Below are positions 1 through 19,392 of a DNA stretch of 23,768 nucleotides, piece by piece. Position 1 is the stretch's first letter. Each line of letters starts with the position of its first letter. The notes below the pieces were generated by a model. That model saw only the letters and a list, made by a program, of their open reading frames with translations. It did no database searches and was not told the DNA's origin. This DNA is from a virus (Duplodnaviria; Heunggongvirae; Uroviricota; Caudoviricetes): the IMG/VR virus record IMGVR_UViG_2778261225_000015. The stretch is one strand, 5' to 3'. The position numbers and the translations under genes are program-made.

Positions 1-12
1 TATCCGCTGGAG

Positions 13-405
13 ATGAAAGAGGATTACACTCAAGCTGACTCATGGCCAGATGATGCTGTTGAAGTTGATGAGCAAGCGTATATTGAGTTTTCCGGATTAC
101 CGCCGAAAGGAAAAATCCGTATCGCTGGAGAAAATGGTTTTCCTGCATGGTCTGAAATTCCACCACCAACACATGAGGAACAGATTGCTGCAGCCGAACT
201 GGAAAAGCAGCAACTGATTAATCAGGCCAACGATTATATGAACAGTAAACAATGGCCTGGTAAAGCGGCTATTGGTCGCCTGAAAGGTGAGGAACTGGCG
301 CAATATAATTTGTGGCTGGATTATCTGGACGCACTGGAACTGGTCGATACCTCCAGTGCTCCAGATATTGAATGGCCTACGCCTCCGGCAGTTCAGGCCA
401 GATGA
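13..405 (+). CDS. Tail fibre assembly protein (Tfa/gpG-like), alternate copy; frame is open back to position 1 so the true 5' end probably lies upstream of the window
   Basis: C-terminal block LWLDYLDALELVDTSSAPDIEWP parallels LNAVLDYIDAVTATDTSTAPDVIWP of the convergent ORF 377..979; no stop between position 1 and the first ATG at 13. Confidence 0.7.
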   Translation: MKEDYTQADSWPDDAVEVDEQAYIEFSGLPPKGKIRIAGENGFPAWSEIPPPTHEEQIAAAELEKQQLINQANDYMNSKQWPGKAAIGRLKGEELAQYNLWLDYLDALELVDTSSAPDIEWPTPPAVQAR

Positions 406-979
406 CATCCGGCGCGGTGCTGGTATCTGTTGCCGTCACCGCGTCAATGTAATCCAGCACGGCGTTAAGTCGGGTTGTTTCTGCCTGCGTCAACTTCCGT
501 CCGGCCTGTAATTTCAGCTGAATCAGACTAATGGAAGCCATTGCTGCATCAATCAGTGACTGGCGCTGTGCTTCTGCCGCGTCTACTGCGGCACTATGCT
601 GTGCCTCAGTATCCGTCACCCATTTCTCACCATCCCATTTATCATATGGCGTTAACGGGGCGATAGTGGTTGTATTTTCAGGGTAATCACCCGGAGCTGT
701 GATTTCTTTCGATTCTCCTGTTTCGGTGCTATAGATGATTTCACCGCGATGGTCTGGCACATATTCCCATGAGTTAAAATCTGCAGAACGGCAGATTGCA
801 TAACCAGCTTTATGTGTAACTGGTGCATCTAAACAAGAACATGCCGGGATACCGACGCCAACCGCAAGATATTCAGTTGATGTGGAAATATATTCCCGCG
901 TTTCACCATCATAATTATAAATGGTAATGTCTCCCGCTTTTATGGCAATGAGTTCGTTATTTAATACGGCTTTATTCAT
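377..979 (-). CDS. Tail fibre assembly protein (Tfa, P2 gpG-like)
   Basis: 200-aa ORF immediately downstream of the tail fibre gene on the same strand (1-nt overlap); Tfa-type C-terminal motif; converges tail-to-tail with the Tfa paralog 13..405. Confidence 0.8.
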   Translation of the reverse strand: MNKAVLNNELIAIKAGDITIYNYDGETREYISTSTEYLAVGVGIPACSCLDAPVTHKAGYAICRSADFNSWEYVPDHRGEIIYSTETGESKEITAPGDYPENTTTIAPLTPYDKWDGEKWVTDTEAQHSAAVDAAEAQRQSLIDAAMASISLIQLKLQAGRKLTQAETTRLNAVLDYIDAVTATDTSTAPDVIWPELPEA

Positions 980-2046
980 CAGGCAGCCCTCACGATATAA
1001 TTAAAGGCAATGTTACGAGGTCGGTTTTCGTTTGCAGTTGGAACAACTCTGGAAGCATCGAATGTTACTCGCTTTGCATAACCACCTTTAATTGAATCAG
1101 ATGAAGCATCTCCGATGACGCTGGTTGTAAAAACGCCAGAATCAGAAGGGTAGGTATTAAACCTGACATCCACTAATGCACCAATTATATTTCGAATGGC
1201 ATCTCCCTGTGACGAAAGCAAGCTACGGTTAGTATCTATTCCTCTTCCGTCATCCCAGCCACGAATGAACTCACCACGTAAATCAGGCAATTTATTTGTC
1301 GGGTAAGCCTTTGCCAGTTCCGGGTATTCTTCAGCAGAAAAAGCCGCACCGTTGCATTTCAGCCAGCCTGTTGGCGGAGTGGCGGAAGGCCACGGAACAG
1401 GCACACCAACGGGTAATGCCGAACCTTCTCCCAAACCAAGGTTTTTGAGAACCTCAGCAACCAATCCGGCGTCGGCCATTTCTTTTAGTGCGTTCGCAAT
1501 CAGCGGGTATTGCTTATGCGGGTTAGCCTTTGCCTCATGATCTTTCATGAGTTTGTCGGCGTAGCTCTTCACCTCGATGACTGCATCGTCGACATATTTA
1601 CGGGTTGCCAGCACGACTGACGGGTCGATTTTTAAGGTGATCGCCGAAGTGCTCGAGACAACGAGAATCATGCGAATGGTCTGCGTTCGGCCGCTCCCCT
1701 CAGCCAGTAACGGTTTATAGGTTTCCGGGCAGTTGGCGACAGCAATCAGGATACCTTCATCATCGTAAAGACCGATTTCGCGGATAAAGAAACCGCCCTC
1801 GTTTTCCGGGATGATCTGCTCGGCAATAATCTGACCGGTGTCGTTAGCATCTACTGCCAGTGAATTTAGCAGCTCGCGGCGACGCTCGTTAATGAGCTTT
1901 GTCTGAGCCGGGTCAGGTGTCGGCAGTGTGCCGTTTCCGTCCCCGACGGCCATTTGTGTAATATTCAGTTTAGTACCGAGTGCGGTCGCGTTTGCCAGTC
2001 GCGCCGCGCCCTGATGGGTCAGAATGGCAAAATATTTAGTCGTCAT
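979..2046 (-). CDS. H: Tail fibre protein H (conserved P2-type N-terminal part plus variable C-terminal receptor-binding part with tail-collar-like motif)
   Basis: N-terminus MTTKYFAILTHQGAARLANA...MAVGDGNGTLPTPD resembles the P2 gpH N-terminus as recalled; C-terminal PVGVPVPWPSATPPTGWLKCNGAAFSAEEYPELAKAY is a tail-collar-type motif; ATGA overlap with gene I. Confidence 0.85.
   Translation of the reverse strand: MTTKYFAILTHQGAARLANATALGTKLNITQMAVGDGNGTLPTPDPAQTKLINERRRELLNSLAVDANDTGQIIAEQIIPENEGGFFIREIGLYDDEGILIAVANCPETYKPLLAEGSGRTQTIRMILVVSSTSAITLKIDPSVVLATRKYVDDAVIEVKSYADKLMKDHEAKANPHKQYPLIANALKEMADAGLVAEVLKNLGLGEGSALPVGVPVPWPSATPPTGWLKCNGAAFSAEEYPELAKAYPTNKLPDLRGEFIRGWDDGRGIDTNRSLLSSQGDAIRNIIGALVDVRFNTYPSDSGVFTTSVIGDASSDSIKGGYAKRVTFDASRVVPTANENRPRNIAFNYIVRAA
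1426..1451. other. Candidate 26-bp crossover site for a Hin/Gin/Cin/Pin-family DNA invertase (hix/gix-like), inside the H coding sequence
   Basis: TTCTCCCAAACCAAGGTTTTTGAGAA: imperfect palindrome with AAACC-AA-GGTTT core, close to the hixL sequence as I recall it (TTCTTGAAAACCAAGGTTTTTGATAA); lies at about codons 198-207 of H, where the conserved N-terminus gives way to the variable C-terminus. Confidence 0.55.
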
Positions 2047-4621: not shown

Positions 4622-5965
4622 CTAGCTTGGGGTAACTGTAACCTGACGAGAAAAAACAACAGGCTCCTTCAATTGCTCACATATAATTTTAAAATTAATA
4701 ACTCCAGAGCCAATCGTTAAGGGAATGATGACTATTTCCTCATACTCAACAGTTAAGCTCTGTAACACTTTTTTCGCACGCAACGTGATTTTATGGTCCT
4801 CTTTCATGACCCACTCATCTTGGTTAACTGTTCCTAAATCAGCCATCCGTTTAATTATTGCTGGCACTTCGAAATGAGGTTTAGCCATTACCATCGATGT
4901 ATCATCAAAAATACCCATCCTAAAATTTTCGAGTGACATTATAGCACTGAGTCTTTTTTTATGCTTACTTATTGGGGACTCAGGGATTTTTAATTTCGGC
5001 TCTTTTATAAATAAGTCTTCATTAGAACCTTTAAGCACTATTAGGAATTCAGGAAAATCAATCTCAACATAAACATTTGACGCAAAAGTCCTCCCATTAT
5101 TTCTTAAAACGGGCTTCACTGTAATTGCATTGTTTTTGTAATTACAGTGCAATCTCATTTTTTTATTATATAAATCCACATCTTTATCAGTAGGCAGTGA
5201 AGAGTTATATGATTCAATCTCATCAATGGTGATAGTGTCCTTCAACTCAAGAGGTACCGCTTCCTTGCATAGTTGTGGAAGGTAATCCTGATAAGTCGAC
5301 TCCACATCCACCGTCAAAGCTAAGTCATTATCAATCATGCTCAGCTCTAATTGAGGTGCATCGCTATGTAATTGGCTTTCATATTCGCGGACTTTTTCCC
5401 TTAATTTTCTATTTTCATTAGATAGCTCAGCCAACTCGGCGGTAATCTCTTTAGATGCGACCTGGTCACCGCGCACCCATCCTATTCGTGGATTTCGTCG
5501 CATTACTTTTGGTAAGGCGATAGCAACCTTCGTCGCTAACTCATCAATTGTCTCCCAAAAATCACACATTTTGTTAGCTTTAGCTTTTTCAATAAAAGCA
5601 TTTAGTTGCTTTTCTTTTTGAGGGTCACTTTCTCGTTCATGTGGTTTTGTTAAAACGTCCCTCCCTCTAATAAAAGCCAACACCGGTATATTTAATGATT
5701 TAGCATAGTTATATTCCATTTCAGTATAGCTAATACCATCTTTAGAAACGGACCCATACTTATGCCCAATGATAATCACATAATAATCACTAGCATCAAT
5801 AGTCTCCTTTATTATATCCCACTGCTCAGAGTCATCAGCGCTAAACATCTCCATGCCAACTGGAAAGTGGTATAAACTAAGGACCGTTTCTATGATTTTT
5901 TTGCGAGCATCAATTAAATCGACGTATGTAGAGCTCACAAATACTTGATATTTTTTATTTTCCAT
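4622..5965 (-). CDS. Cargo protein, 447 aa: N-terminal TIR-like/DUF4062-like domain (KYQVFVSSTYVDL...), central coiled coil, C-terminal domain of unknown function; candidate anti-phage defence or exclusion protein
   Basis: Start ATG at 5965 preceded by GAGGA with 4-nt spacing; AT-rich coding sequence embedded between GC-rich S and V genes; N-terminal motif recalled as typical of DUF4062. Confidence 0.75.
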   Translation of the reverse strand: MENKKYQVFVSSTYVDLIDARKKIIETVLSLYHFPVGMEMFSADDSEQWDIIKETIDASDYYVIIIGHKYGSVSKDGISYTEMEYNYAKSLNIPVLAFIRGRDVLTKPHERESDPQKEKQLNAFIEKAKANKMCDFWETIDELATKVAIALPKVMRRNPRIGWVRGDQVASKEITAELAELSNENRKLREKVREYESQLHSDAPQLELSMIDNDLALTVDVESTYQDYLPQLCKEAVPLELKDTITIDEIESYNSSLPTDKDVDLYNKKMRLHCNYKNNAITVKPVLRNNGRTFASNVYVEIDFPEFLIVLKGSNEDLFIKEPKLKIPESPISKHKKRLSAIMSLENFRMGIFDDTSMVMAKPHFEVPAIIKRMADLGTVNQDEWVMKEDHKITLRAKKVLQSLTVEYEEIVIIPLTIGSGVINFKIICEQLKEPVVFSRQVTVTPS

Positions 5966-6002
5966 AACATCCTCACTTGTATAGAAAATAAAATACATAA
6001 AA

Positions 6003-6470
6003 TCAATCAATAGATCTAGCCGCCTCAGCTAAAGAAACCATAATTATGTCATGAATCATATTTTTTGATTCATGATCAAACCCGATAAGCATTCGGGCGT
6101 CATACTGTACCGGCGCACTGTTTCGCCCAGGCTTATCTTTGAGACCGTACTGATGCACATTCGCCATCCGTTGTACCTTGCCGGTAAATTCCACGACCGC
6201 CGAGTCATTCCCCGCTGTGGCTTTCATAAAGCGACTGGTGCGGAGCTTAGCGAACATTTCCCGCTTAACCCGGCCTGTTTTGGCTTTTACCGGCTGGCGT
6301 TTTCGGGCGGCGTAAGGTGTCCCGTCCGGGGCTTTCTGCATTTTAATCCGGCGCTGTTGACGGGCTCGCAGGGTCTTAGCGATATCTGCGGCCATTCTGC
6401 GACGGGCGGCAGGAGACAGCGCTGCTATCAGCCCCGTGAGCGTATCGTCAAAGGGTTTAAAGTCATTCAT
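6003..6470 (-). CDS. S: Tail completion protein S
   Basis: 155 aa, P2 gpS-like sequence and position; overlaps R by 8 nt. Confidence 0.85.
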   Translation of the reverse strand: MNDFKPFDDTLTGLIAALSPAARRRMAADIAKTLRARQQRRIKMQKAPDGTPYAARKRQPVKAKTGRVKREMFAKLRTSRFMKATAGNDSAVVEFTGKVQRMANVHQYGLKDKPGRNSAPVQYDARMLIGFDHESKNMIHDIIMVSLAEAARSID

Positions 6471-7451: not shown

Positions 7452-7957
7452 TTCACCCCCTTCAGGCAGTAGGTGCGCTCACGAAAGCGGCGGTTTTCGA
7501 CCCCGGCATTACGCTCACCATTCACAAACACCCAGCGGGTGAGCTGGTCACAGGCCTGCCACCATTGCCGGTGTTTCAGGTGATACACCAGCGTCGAGCG
7601 ACAGGCCGCGCCGGTGCCGACGTTAAAAGCGAAGCTGACCAGCGCGTCATAGACGGCGGGTGGCATGTCCACCGGCACACAGACCGCGAGTCGTTTCTCG
7701 ACGTTCAGCACGTCGGCGACCAGATTCGCGGCGGCTTCCTTCTCGGTGATATCCCGTTTCGGTACCACCCCGGCAGTGTGGCCGATGCCTGACGTCCACA
7801 CACCCGCGCTGCACTGGTAAGGACGCAACCGGCACCCCTCGAGGTCGGCAATCAGCGCGAGCCCTTCCGGCGAGGTGTGAAGCAAACGAAAATCAGGCAC
7901 CAGTGCCGCCAGCGCCAGCACGACGGCCACACTGCAACGTTTAACGAATGAGCCCAC
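7448..7957 (-). CDS. SAR (signal-anchor-release) endolysin, T4-lysozyme/P1 Lyz-like
   Basis: Block LIADLEGCRLRPYQCSAGVWTSGIGHT resembles the P1 Lyz region as recalled; N-terminal weakly hydrophobic anchor KRCSVAVVLALAALV. Start proposed at GTG 7957, 14 nt upstream of the holin stop; the 204-aa ORF to 8062 has no internal ATG and would overlap most of the holin. Confidence 0.75.
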   Translation of the reverse strand: MGSFVKRCSVAVVLALAALVPDFRLLHTSPEGLALIADLEGCRLRPYQCSAGVWTSGIGHTAGVVPKRDITEKEAAANLVADVLNVEKRLAVCVPVDMPPAVYDALVSFAFNVGTGAACRSTLVYHLKHRQWWQACDQLTRWVFVNGERNAGVENRRFRERTYCLKGVK

Positions 7958-8162
7958 GAATAACCCCCTTATCAATCCCCATCGAGACGAGATAGCGGTA
8001 TTTCTTTCGCTGGTACCAGAAGTTAACCAGCGCGGTAAAAATGGCGCAGCTTCCCCCGACATAAAGCGCGAGCCGTTCCGGCGTCTGCGTACCGAAATAC
8101 GCCAGCACCACTGACAGCCAGTAGGTCAGAAAGGTTGTGATTTTATCCACAGTCAGTCCCAT
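7941..8162 (-). CDS. Holin (two predicted TM segments, charged C-terminus)
   Basis: 73 aa with TM segments ITTFLTYWLSVVLAYFG and LALYVGGSCAIFTALVNFWY and a basic tail; located between X and the endolysin as in P2 gene Y. Confidence 0.7.
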   Translation of the reverse strand: MGLTVDKITTFLTYWLSVVLAYFGTQTPERLALYVGGSCAIFTALVNFWYQRKKYRYLVSMGIDKGVIRGLIR

Positions 8163-8356
8163 AAATTCACGGTCTCCGATACCGGTGCGGTGTCAACTTC
8201 AGGCAGACTGACCGCCGTGCCATGTGGCAGGACGACGCCCAGCTCGGCGAGTCCCGGATTAGCCAGCAATACCGCCTCGACCACACCTTCAGTGCGCCCG
8301 TAATGGCGCTGACATAACGTGTCGAGCGTGTCGCCCTGATGCGCGAAGATGTTCAT
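8153..8356 (-). CDS. X: Tail protein X
   Basis: 67 aa, the same length and position as P2 gpX. Confidence 0.8.
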   Translation of the reverse strand: MNIFAHQGDTLDTLCQRHYGRTEGVVEAVLLANPGLAELGVVLPHGTAVSLPEVDTAPVSETVNLWD

Positions 8357-8856
8357 CAGATTTGCCCCACGATGCAGCGCGCTTTGTCCTGGATACGGGC
8401 AACCGACCAGCGCATGTCACGCCACATTTCATCGATGGTGTCATCGATGCTGTCGGCCTTTTTGTCACCTTTGGCGCTCGCATCAACGCCCCGGTAACGC
8501 TCGTACAGCGTCGCGGTCGTCATCGAGCAAACAGCGTTGAAGTAGTGAAAAACCCGCACACTTTCGCCGTCGAGTTCATCCGTCGGCACATCCTCAAGTC
8601 GCGCGTAACCGGCGGCGAGCTGAAGGTCGCGCCAGTCGGTTAACTCGGCGTTGGTCTCCGCCATCGCGGTTTTAATCGCCCGGCGCAGACGCACCGGCGT
8701 CACGGTCTGCTCGAGGCGCATTTCTTCGCGCATGCGCTTCGGATCAACATCCGGGAAAAAGGCCGTGTTTTTAATCACCGGCTCGTCAACCGGCACCGGC
8801 GGGATGACCATCGGGTCGCGCTGTTGCGCCGGGTTATTCATCACAATCATGGTCAT
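8356..8856 (-). CDS. L: Head completion/stabilisation protein L
   Basis: 166 aa, P2 gpL-like size and position downstream of M. Confidence 0.8.
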   Translation of the reverse strand: MTMIVMNNPAQQRDPMVIPPVPVDEPVIKNTAFFPDVDPKRMREEMRLEQTVTPVRLRRAIKTAMAETNAELTDWRDLQLAAGYARLEDVPTDELDGESVRVFHYFNAVCSMTTATLYERYRGVDASAKGDKKADSIDDTIDEMWRDMRWSVARIQDKARCIVGQI

Positions 8857-14834: not shown

Positions 14835-15521
14835 TTATTGCTTATCTTGTGGTGGTGGAACCTCTTTTTCTAAATTATCTACATACTCTCTAATATTGAA
14901 TGCTTTGTTTTTCCTTATTTCGGTAGTGTTAACCTTACTAACACCATCACGAATGTTTTTATTTATGGTGTCTATTAATTTTTGTCTTTCTTGTTCTGTT
15001 TTTATTATTTCACTTAAGAATGACTTTGCGTTTCTTGAAATGTCCGTCTGTCTATTAATGAATAGTATCGCATACACTGAAAAAACCAAGCAAGTAGTCG
15101 TTAGTGCGGAATTAAAAAATACCCCATAATAAACATTAACTTTTGTTATTGACGCTGATAACGTTAGTGATATCAAAAAAAACAAAATCAGGGTAAAAAT
15201 ATATGCAATGGTTACTTTGTTTTTAGTGGTGTCAAGAATGTATGAAGTTCTTTGATCATCAAAGTAATCCTTTATCCTTGATGGAGTGTTTGCGGGGAGT
15301 TCTAACTCCTTTATTTTATCATCAGCATCAATTAGTCGCTTAAACATGAGGCTAATGATTACGGCGCTAAAGACAGAGATCCCCTTTGAAATTATAGGAT
15401 CGAAATCAATTAAAAATGAGTATTTTGAATAAACAAAAACAATAACAAAACCACATATAAGCCCAATTACAATTGAGCTTGCTATGTTTTTTGCATATGT
15501 TTGTAACGTATTGTTTATCAT
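14835..15521 (-). CDS. Integral membrane protein, 228 aa, four predicted TM helices (2 + loop + 2) with cytoplasmic charged tail; second gene of a two-gene cargo operon
   Basis: Hydrophobic segments near residues 13-31, 47-60, 114-135 and 141-165; ATGA start/stop overlap with the upstream gene; AT-rich. Confidence 0.7.
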   Translation of the reverse strand: MINNTLQTYAKNIASSIVIGLICGFVIVFVYSKYSFLIDFDPIISKGISVFSAVIISLMFKRLIDADDKIKELELPANTPSRIKDYFDDQRTSYILDTTKNKVTIAYIFTLILFFLISLTLSASITKVNVYYGVFFNSALTTTCLVFSVYAILFINRQTDISRNAKSFLSEIIKTEQERQKLIDTINKNIRDGVSKVNTTEIRKNKAFNIREYVDNLEKEVPPPQDKQ

Positions 15522-16501
15522 GGGTTAATTACTCCGGTGTCTAGTAAGCGCAATAACCATGAAATCATTTCTTCAGCAACGTTGTCAGCAATTAGCATTC
15601 CATTGCTGTATTCAATATTAACTGAATCCTTTAGTTGAATCTCATCATTCCTGAGTATTCCTGCACCTTTTAACTCAATTGTTAAGCTTTCATCTCTATT
15701 ATCAACCAAGCCTTGTGTAATTTTACGCAACATGTCTTGCTCAGACTCGCTTGCTTTATATTTATACCCAATGGAAATATCAATTGATAGAGATTCCCTG
15801 TCAGGTGAACCATCATTTAAAATGGTATTTTTCTTCATTTCATTAATTCGATGTTCACCTACGAGCGTTTTTAATAGCTCACTAGCTGTATCATCAATAT
15901 TATTTCCATAGTAGGTTAAAGGCAGCTTTAAGCTAACATTTTTTACTATGTTACGTTTTAAAAAATCCGTATTTAGAGACAGGTTGTTTGCCTGTAAAAC
16001 GATGAAGTTATCATCAGTAATAGATAGGTTGTCTTGTAGTATGAAATTTATATAATTTTCAATATCTTTTATTCTAATAGATCTGCTTTGCAGAATTATG
16101 AAGTGGTTCTTAATCACACCAATGTATGCAATGCTTTCTAAATACTCTCTAGCATTCCCACTTGATAAATTTAATGTCTCGTATGTTAAAGCTGTTTTAG
16201 CATAATCGCTAACAGAGAAAACAGGAATGCTACTACCCGGTTCAATATAGACAATTTCCGCAAAAAACATTCCATGAATTTCTTTGCTATTTGAAAGAAC
16301 CATGTGGGCGTGAGCAGCGACATTACCATTATTATCTGGAACATCAGGGAAGAATAATCTATCAGCAACATTTGGAACCTTGATTTTCACAAGGTTTGCC
16401 AACCTATCTTGCAGGTTTGATGTTAAAAGAGCATCCTTTTTAGGAAGCATTATTGCATGGCGATAATGCAGCATTTTACTCTTATAATCTTGCGTTGCCA
16501 T
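15518..16501 (-). CDS. Uncharacterised soluble protein, 327 aa; first gene of a two-gene cargo operon at the portal/cos hotspot
   Basis: ATG 16501 preceded by AGAGGGA; no Walker A, HxH or GxSxG motif seen by eye; AT-rich codon usage unlike the phage backbone. Confidence 0.75.
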   Translation of the reverse strand: MATQDYKSKMLHYRHAIMLPKKDALLTSNLQDRLANLVKIKVPNVADRLFFPDVPDNNGNVAAHAHMVLSNSKEIHGMFFAEIVYIEPGSSIPVFSVSDYAKTALTYETLNLSSGNAREYLESIAYIGVIKNHFIILQSRSIRIKDIENYINFILQDNLSITDDNFIVLQANNLSLNTDFLKRNIVKNVSLKLPLTYYGNNIDDTASELLKTLVGEHRINEMKKNTILNDGSPDRESLSIDISIGYKYKASESEQDMLRKITQGLVDNRDESLTIELKGAGILRNDEIQLKDSVNIEYSNGMLIADNVAEEMISWLLRLLDTGVINP

Positions 16502-17095: not shown

Positions 17096-17244
17096 TAACG
17101 TATTGGCAAAAGATGGGAAGAGAAAAAGTGAATCGGGTAGGTGTTGTATGTACATGATATGGATGTAAATTAATCACCTGTGAGTTTTGATGTTTCTGCC
17201 AGCACCGCAACACGATTAAGGATTTCCCTAGGCTTTGCCTGAAG

Positions 17245-19392
17245 CTATGGCGCTGCGGAGAAAATTTCACCTTTGGACGTTCCACGCAACCATTTACCGT
17301 TAATACAACTTTTGCCACCTGCTATCAGGTGCAGGGCTTCTCCCCGGCTGATGGTAATGCCGGTTGTCAGACGGATCTCGTCGATAGTTTTTTCTATCGG
17401 AGCACTTTGCTCATCTGTTCCGTGGATAAATTTCGGCCTCTTAGGTGGCTTTGGTTTCCTGATTCGGTTCGTCAGCTCTCGCCTTTCACGTCGACTCAGG
17501 GGTTTTGATAAATCGAGTTCCGGTGGATCGCTTTCGCTTCCCGTACAGTTATTGACAGAACTCCAAGGGACGGCGAAGCCGTCCTTAACGTCAACGGCCA
17601 AATCAACGGCACGCTTCGGAACAATTTTCCATTGCGTGAGCCGGGTTAAAATCGGAGTGCCAACACCAACGGTGGAGTCGTACACACCACGAATGCAGAC
17701 AGTTTCCTCACCATACTGGTTAAACTCGGTGCGCGGTTCATAAAGCGTACGCACCTGCAAATCATCGCGACGGACAAACGGACCGCCCTGCGCATTAACA
17801 TAGCCAGCCCAATCACCGGCATCGGCGGCATCATGGACAGCCGCAAACTCAACACTTAGACCGTGCGCGGTCTCGGTATCTGCAAGGCGACGCAATTCAC
17901 GATAAACAGTCACTGGTGCACCACCGATAAACTGAAACTGACGAATATGCCAGCGCGCCGCCCATGCTGAAACGGCGGGGGCTGTCTCTTTCAACAGTTC
18001 ACCGTTTTCGTCATCGGTTTCGTCATCAAGAGCGTAACCGTCGATATTTTTCGAGATGTATTTCGCGACGTAGCCGGTTGCGCTGCCTTTCTCCGGATCA
18101 ATGGCTTCTGCGTGGAAACGTGCTTTTTTGGCTTTATCGCTTTTGAGTTCGTGAAAATCTTCTTGCCATGCGTAGTCCCGAATAATGCCACGAACGGTAT
18201 CGACGTCCTCCGGGAGCATAAACATCAGCATATGCCAGTGAGGGCACCCGTCATGGTGAGGCTCTGCAACGCGGATCCCGAAAATACGAATGTCTTCACG
18301 GTGGAGTTTTGCGCGAATGCGTGCCCACAGGCCAGTGAGATAACATTGCGTATCGGATGGATTGGATCCATTCCATTTGGTGTTACGGTAGCCTGCCTTT
18401 GTCGTGGCGTGATATTTAGACGGTGCGGTCAGGGTGTAAAACTCACCAACATAACCGAGCTCATTGCAGATATTTTCAAACCCACGAATGCGGGTCATAA
18501 GCTCACAGCGTCGAATCGCAGAGTTAGCGACTGAACCATCGTATTTTTCAATCAGGCTGATACGGTTGCCGTCTTCGTCTTCAAGCTCCAGACCTTTGAG
18601 AAATTCGCGCGTCCGGCGCTTCTGTTCACGCCAGTCTGTCACGCAGTTTTTACTCGCGTAGACATGTTTTTTCTTACTGACATTTCCGATTGCGATTTGC
18701 AGGTGTTCGCGCCACGCAGCCGCAATGCGACGCAGACGGCCACGCCACCATTTTTCCGAAAACATACGGGCAATTGCTGGAGCGACTTTATCCTGATCCC
18801 AATATTTATCCCGCGACCGTTCCCACTCTGGTGGCATTATCCTGAATTGCTGAGTGATGAAACCAGCATGCATATACCAGGCATTTAATGTCTCCAGTTC
18901 ACACATGTCAGAATCGTCAATGTTGACTAACTCTGCACGGATAAAATCGGCGATATCAGCAGCCAGCAGGTCGATGTCGGCGCGTGCCATATCCGGGAGT
19001 CGGTTGTATCTGGCGACTATGTTGACCATGCGAGACGCCAGATATTGCATAAGCTGAGTATCGAAATGACAACCGAAAACAGCGGCTGATACGTTGCTGT
19101 TAATACCGGTACACTCGTATTTTTTTGCGACCAGTTCAAAACGCGGCAATGCCTTTTTGCAGAAGCTTATTAAAAAAGCATTGGCTCGTTGACTGCCCTG
19201 ATTTTGCTCCAGCACCGCAGCAGTGCGATAAACGTCAAAACGTACACACTCGGGCTGGAGGGAAAGCACCTTTCTAGCATGCAGCAAAGCCGCGAGCATA
19301 CGGTCGCGGCGATACTGTTGGTCGTAGGTAAGATATGGACTGGCTATTGCCGACCGTGGAGCATTCCACGGAAACGCGAATTGAACAGCCAA
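17245..19392 (-). CDS. A: Replication initiation protein A (rolling-circle replication endonuclease, P2/186 gpA family)
   Basis: 715 aa, gpA-like size and position; the first codon is TTG at 19392 with GGGGGA 7 nt upstream, directly after the stop of the upstream zinc-finger gene; no in-frame ATG near the 5' end. Confidence 0.85.
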   Translation of the reverse strand: MAVQFAFPWNAPRSAIASPYLTYDQQYRRDRMLAALLHARKVLSLQPECVRFDVYRTAAVLEQNQGSQRANAFLISFCKKALPRFELVAKKYECTGINSNVSAAVFGCHFDTQLMQYLASRMVNIVARYNRLPDMARADIDLLAADIADFIRAELVNIDDSDMCELETLNAWYMHAGFITQQFRIMPPEWERSRDKYWDQDKVAPAIARMFSEKWWRGRLRRIAAAWREHLQIAIGNVSKKKHVYASKNCVTDWREQKRRTREFLKGLELEDEDGNRISLIEKYDGSVANSAIRRCELMTRIRGFENICNELGYVGEFYTLTAPSKYHATTKAGYRNTKWNGSNPSDTQCYLTGLWARIRAKLHREDIRIFGIRVAEPHHDGCPHWHMLMFMLPEDVDTVRGIIRDYAWQEDFHELKSDKAKKARFHAEAIDPEKGSATGYVAKYISKNIDGYALDDETDDENGELLKETAPAVSAWAARWHIRQFQFIGGAPVTVYRELRRLADTETAHGLSVEFAAVHDAADAGDWAGYVNAQGGPFVRRDDLQVRTLYEPRTEFNQYGEETVCIRGVYDSTVGVGTPILTRLTQWKIVPKRAVDLAVDVKDGFAVPWSSVNNCTGSESDPPELDLSKPLSRRERRELTNRIRKPKPPKRPKFIHGTDEQSAPIEKTIDEIRLTTGITISRGEALHLIAGGKSCINGKWLRGTSKGEIFSAAP

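Follow-up and report, generated by a model that had tools for sequence, protein, structure and literature searches.

The window analysed here is a stretch of 23,768 nucleotides, and at its left end two genes for tail-fibre assembly proteins (Tfa) converge next to the tail-fibre gene H (Table 1). The earlier note on this DNA had described the two convergent Tfa genes, and both the open reading frames and the Pfam matches support that description, but the start assigned to the plus-strand gene, position 13, was not retained because the ATG found there is internal to a frame that is open from the first base. The first 12 codons of this gene, here called Tfa', lie in the 36 bases to the left of the window, as seen in the identical genomes described below, and the full protein has 146 aa (WP_001106837.1; gene at positions 7965-8405 of the FORC 064 locus, L001). 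Tfa and full-length Tfa' both match the tail-fibre assembly protein family Caudo_TAP (Pfam PF02413), with E = 1.7e-32 and 2.9e-38, respectively, and the 3' ends of the two genes share 29 bases (377-405). The C-termini had been called related but diverged, which agrees with a likeness limited to the C-terminal ~72 residues at 38% identity (E = 3e-12). The minus-strand Tfa gene comes directly after the tail fibre, also as described before, and its start coincides with the stop codon of H.

Table 1. Features of the tail-fibre locus. Positions are those of the window unless the FORC 064 locus (L001) is named.
Feature	Position	Strand or context	Basis or remark
Tfa' gene	1..405	+	frame open from base 1; codons 13-146 and stop within the window
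Tfa gene (annotated tfaE, 200 aa, WP_001030515.1)	377..979	-	ORF and Pfam Caudo_TAP
Tail-fibre gene H, 355 aa	979-2046	-	Phage_tail_fib N-terminal and Collar domains (Pfam)
Hv, variable C-terminal part of H (about residues 203-355, Collar)	979..1439	-	inside the invertible segment
Hc, constant N-terminal part of H (about residues 1-202)	1440..2046	-	outside the invertible segment
Fibre-proximal crossover site, 26 bp, hix/gix-like	1426-1451	inside H	codes for LKNLGLGE
In-window part of the 1,847-bp invertible segment	1..1438		78% of the segment; the other 409 bases lie left of the window
Serine invertase, 192 aa	FORC 064 L001 6946-7524, outside the window	-	Resolvase and HTH_7

The H protein has two recognizable domains, Phage_tail_fib at residues 1-150 (E = 1.4e-61) and Collar at residues 214-261 (E = 6.1e-15). 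In the identical region of FORC 064, the PGAP annotation gives the P2 gene order (lysis, R, S, V, W, J, I, H, G, FI, FII, E, E', T, U, D) together with capsid, portal, terminase, integrase and repressor genes of the P2 family, and the nearest deposited phages are Peduoviridae. Judged from this gene content, the prophage is classified as P2-like (Peduoviridae). The replication endonuclease gene A (17170-19392, minus strand) is interrupted by an in-frame stop codon (17245-17247) that falls 24 codons short of the expected end, and the identical gene of FORC 064 is annotated as a pseudogene by PGAP ('internal stop').

Two further regions of the prophage were noted. The minus strand at 4622-6010, between the virion morphogenesis gene S and the baseplate gene V, encodes a protein of 462 aa whose N-terminal part matches DUF4062 (Pfam E = 1.9e-28). 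This gene is located in a low-GC island (34-41% GC, compared with 55-61% in the flanks) at the position of the P2 orf30 moron, and from its sequence it looks like acquired cargo, possibly with an anti-phage role. A pair of overlapping ORFs for hypothetical proteins of 228 and 327 aa occupies 14835-16501 on the minus strand, flanked by the portal gene and the early region, a usual cargo position of P2-like phages. PADLOC gave no match for these three cargo ORFs (462, 228 and 327 aa).

The region to the left of the window could be read from genomes that contain the same prophage. Three E. coli chromosomes in RefSeq (JNE070796, AST20 and GmM066) matched all 23,768 bases of the window at 100%, and FORC 064 differed from it by a single mismatch in the 10,400 bases compared. 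The left flank is alike in all four genomes, and contains the first 12 codons of Tfa', a gp53-like ORF, a second crossover site, a gene for a 'recombinase family protein' on the opposite strand and the P2 sheath gene FI. The gp53-like ORF is a start-less alternative fibre C-terminus of 393 bp, annotated as 'gp53-like domain-containing protein'. The earlier note had predicted an alternate fibre C-terminus, a second site and a serine invertase in this direction and had pointed further left for the variable exon, the second site and a Hin/Gin/Pin-like gene, and all of them are present in the four window-matching genomes. As a matter of calibration, three unseen features were thus correctly predicted from the layout alone, without tools. 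We infer from the layout that Tfa' is the chaperone for assembly of the alternative tip, which is silent in the orientation of the window, and that Tfa serves the tip expressed in that orientation.

The recombinase gene, located just outside the far site between the invertible segment and the sheath gene FI, encodes a protein with Resolvase (E = 5.2e-51) and HTH_7 (E = 9.9e-13) domains that is 70% identical to the Mu invertase Gin (PDB 3uj3, E = 1.2e-86) and keeps the Ser9 motif, YVRVSTNEQ. Enhancer-dependent invertases contact Fis through a patch of Gln, Arg and Leu residues (PMC3798978), and the equivalents of these three residues are retained here. The 5' region of the gene aligns with Mu gin, free of gaps inside the coding part. 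Scanning this 5' region for Fis sites returned many weak candidates, as it also did in Mu, and no clear pair; because the Fis motif is so highly degenerate, no enhancer is demonstrable by such a scan.

Inspection of H by eye revealed a candidate crossover site, TTCTCCCAAACCAAGGTTTTTGAGAA, which was then confirmed by a DNA pattern search. The site, which the earlier note had overlooked although it lies within the window, occurs in a single copy in the window and in 0 of 100 shuffles. It is an imperfect palindrome, TTCTCCCAAACC AA GGTTTTTGAGAA, with the central AA at 1438-1439, and it has the AAACC-NN-GGTTT core in common with gixL and gixR of Mu. The partner site, TTTTCTTAAACGTTGGTTTAGGAGAA, is located at positions 7579-7604 of the FORC 064 locus and separates the gp53-like ORF from the recombinase gene. 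Aligned with the reverse complement of the window site, it agrees at 21 of the 26 positions, the central dinucleotide (TT/AA core) included, so that the two sites are in inverted orientation. A repeat-finding search did not report this pair because 21 matches in 26 bases leave no exact seed of 9 bases. In many other E. coli prophages, similarity to the left part of the window ends at 1442-1451, and therefore a module boundary is located at the crossover site.

When AAACCNNGGTTT was searched with at most one mismatch in 18.4 kb around the locus, these two sites were the only matches and a third crossover site was not found. The number of sites bears on the reading of the locus as a shufflon or Min-type system that has several sites and offers three or more fibre tips, for which the three-repeat locus of a P2-like prophage in E2348/69 provides a precedent (PMC4272514). 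Since just two sites in 18.4 kb and just two modules of tip plus Tfa are present, we give this reading practically no chance, and membership of the shufflon or Min (p15B) group, which needs at least three sites, was rejected.

The consequence of recombination between the two sites was computed by cutting FORC 064 at the centres of both and reversing the 1,847 bases between them (L001 7592-9438). In the product, Hc is joined in frame to the gp53-like tip, giving H', an intact ORF of 319 aa with a Gp53-like_C domain (E = 3e-14), followed by Tfa'. Both orientations therefore give an in-frame fibre, H ending in the Collar tip and H' in the Gp53-like tip, with residues 1 to ~202 in common and Phage_tail_fib at residues 1-150 in each.

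The computed product is found in nature. Over 6,001 bases, strain 1190 showed 0 mismatches to it and 1,371 to the uninverted form, and PCN033 carries the flipped allele at 100%. In both strains Hv is replaced, and Hc, which is common to both fibre forms, is identical in the two orientation states; the rest of the two prophages corresponds to window 1425-23768 at 100.0%. The hybrid sites in strain 1190 limit the exchange to 7 bp common to both sites, window 1433-1439, which include the central AA. The exact agreement of strain 1190 with the computed product indicates that the inversion has happened in nature, and the switch in orientation that had been proposed from the layout is seen between strains. 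Among the prophages of this lineage in the collection, 9 (99.9-100% identity) are oriented as in the window and 2 are flipped, and this skew suggests that switching may be slow or biased.

These observations also bear on a reading without any invertible segment, in which illegitimate or homologous recombination among the fibre regions of prophages left the plus-strand Tfa-like ORF behind, lacking a partner tip, a site and an invertase. Stray stf/tfa fragments are common in E. coli prophages, and within the window alone nothing to the left of base 1 is visible, so such an origin would be compatible with the window itself. The partner tip, the second site and the invertase are nevertheless present in every window-matching genome, and the exact inversion product occurs in two strains, which makes this reading vanishingly improbable. 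The earlier note had itself set this scenario against its proposal, and it is ruled out by the genes of the left flank together with the inversion product of strain 1190. The layout that had been likened to Mu G, P1 C and e14 Pin, by contrast, was recovered in full: two convergent modules of tip plus Tfa, two inverted sites and an invertase.

Taken together, we consider with high confidence that a P2/186-like prophage next to yfiB carries at this locus an invertible host-range cassette with two states, of the Gin/Cin/Pin/Hin type, and the tail-fibre switch is a real and very probably functional feature. The segment carries two convergent modules, in each of which a fibre tip precedes the Tfa chaperone gene that belongs to it. 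In the state of the window, H has the Collar tip (355 aa) with the 200-aa Tfa after it, and in the flipped state it has the Gp53-like tip (319 aa) with the 146-aa Tfa' after it. The mechanism can be sketched from Mu G, P1 C and Hin: cleavage by the invertase would take place at the central dinucleotide of both sites, followed by rotation of the ends, and Fis would presumably be needed, as would an enhancer within the 5' end of the invertase gene. By the same comparison, only the arm joined to Hc would be expressed, from the late V-W-J-I-H operon, and by analogy the two tips may bind different receptors. The P2 late promoter element TGT-N12-ACA was absent upstream of V, and the total of 5 occurrences equals the chance expectation (4.98); a sigma-70 promoter and terminator scan of the cassette also gave promoters at chance level. 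Because the promoter scans were at the level of chance, expression from the late operon is something we infer from the related systems.

Flipping would presumably be done by the prophage's own invertase. Members of this invertase family, however, can also work in trans (PMC12529663), and for this reason the enzyme of the prophage is the presumed, rather than the proven, agent. The anatomy of the locus may thus be right while the capacity to switch by itself has been lost, the two orientations being rare past events or the work of an invertase of another prophage. One such case is the e14 P segment, which is inverted in trans by PinQ from the Qin prophage (PMC12529663), and e14 Pin, PinQ, PinR and Gin are candidates for such an enzyme here. 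The skew of 9 to 2 and the premature stop in gene A, by which the prophage may be decaying, are in line with this reading, as is residue 46 of the invertase: it is Asn (PGLNRAL) where Gin (PGLKRAL) and Hin (Lys47) carry Lys, and the Hin Lys47 position is Lys in 15 of 15 aligned invertases (PMC3798978). The invertase of E2348/69, 99% identical, also has Asn at this position. Against the loss of self-switching, the invertase ORF is intact, keeps its catalytic Ser9 motif and Fis-contact residues, and is nearly the same as the E2348/69 copy; the two fibre tips and the two Tfa genes likewise have uninterrupted reading frames. In addition, about one substitution or none separates flipped from unflipped prophages over 22 kb, which indicates that the flips are very recent. 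On balance, a cassette frozen in this way is improbable, and we retain the active two-state switch as the preferred reading.

The stop in gene A is relevant also to the use of the switch. Because of it, virion production is uncertain, and judged from this sequence the prophage may be replication-defective and produce no virions. In that case the switch would have no consequence for host range. It could then be kept for the benefit of the host, rather than for phage host range, in a replication-impaired prophage, although we regard this as a very long shot. If it were so, alternative fibre or Tfa products would possibly mask surface receptors against other phages, as has been reported for the e14 segment flipped by PinQ (PMC12529663); another possibility would be the retargeting of tailocin-like particles.

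With the two-state switch as the preferred reading, the locus adds one more P2-like prophage to a textbook mechanism, the bet-hedging of phage receptor specificity by site-specific inversion. For annotation, H and the 'gp53-like domain' ORF are to be read as two ends of one switchable gene, and an assembly shows the orientation at one moment rather than a fixed character of the strain.

The design itself is known, as it has been reported in P2-like prophages before and the genes are already annotated in RefSeq. Phase variation by inversion was measured by sequencing and PCR in two P2-like prophages of E2348/69 (PMC4272514), and Fels-2 of Salmonella is found in opposite orientations in LT2 and LT7, with a pin/fin homologue, STM2702 (PMC7953296). 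For Fels-2, as here, inversion was deduced by comparing two strains that differ in orientation. The E2348/69 and Fels-2 loci occupy the same place in the P2-type tail cluster as the present one, with the invertase between the cassette and FI, and a survey found invertases to be frequent in the P2 fibre hotspot (10.1101/2024.10.15.618418).

A close relative of the present cassette is also found in E2348/69, in a P2-like remnant with 96% DNA identity over the cassette and 99% protein identity of the invertase. This copy lacks the constant part of H and is not tied to the loci of PMC4272514, the main text of which gives no coordinates. The remnant (NC_011601.1, 2977243-2980112) is truncated and has the same yfiB-side location as the prophage described here; its fibre tip borders directly on an integrase fragment, and the deletion takes in the constant part of H together with all that would follow. 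Deposited P2-like phages such as NC_041848 (O157:H43 T22) and Salmonella phage MET_P1_103_31 share the layout of the present locus, with a DNA identity of 79-84%. The cassette also recurs at 95-99% identity on other fibre N-termini, including those on E. coli plasmids of 66-216 kb. Since the cassette recurs and the similarity ends at the crossover site, the whole cassette moves as a module between unrelated elements.

The G segment of Mu with its invertase Gin has the same order as the present locus, in which a constant part is followed by a variable part and chaperone that face an inverted alternative pair, with the invertase just outside. In Mu, too, the 26-bp sites with the AAACC-NN-GGTTT core are found where the fibre gene encodes an NLGL peptide. 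The systems differ in the length of the segment (about 3 kb in Mu, 1.85 kb here) and in the phage that carries it, which is Mu-like in one case and P2/186-like in the other. Comparison of the fibre tips with Mu S and S' gave no significant similarity, and on these sequence comparisons the link to Mu is one of architecture and invertase rather than of receptor-binding domains.

The P segment of e14, a defective lambdoid element, with Pin (and PinQ and PinR), and the C segment of P1 with Cin use invertases of the same family and the same logic of tip plus Tfa; the likeness is drawn by family and layout. The expressed Tfa of the present locus is annotated tfaE by PGAP, in line with the likeness to e14. 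In K-12, inversion of the e14 segment was recently tied to blocking of T2 adsorption (PMC12529663).

In P2 itself, the tail order V-W-J-I-H-G-FI and the N-terminal Phage_tail_fib domain of H are the same as here. Canonical P2 has one fixed H of 669 aa and one G, and is not known to have an invertase. In contrast to this fixed fibre, H of the present prophage is switchable, with a length of 355 or 319 aa.
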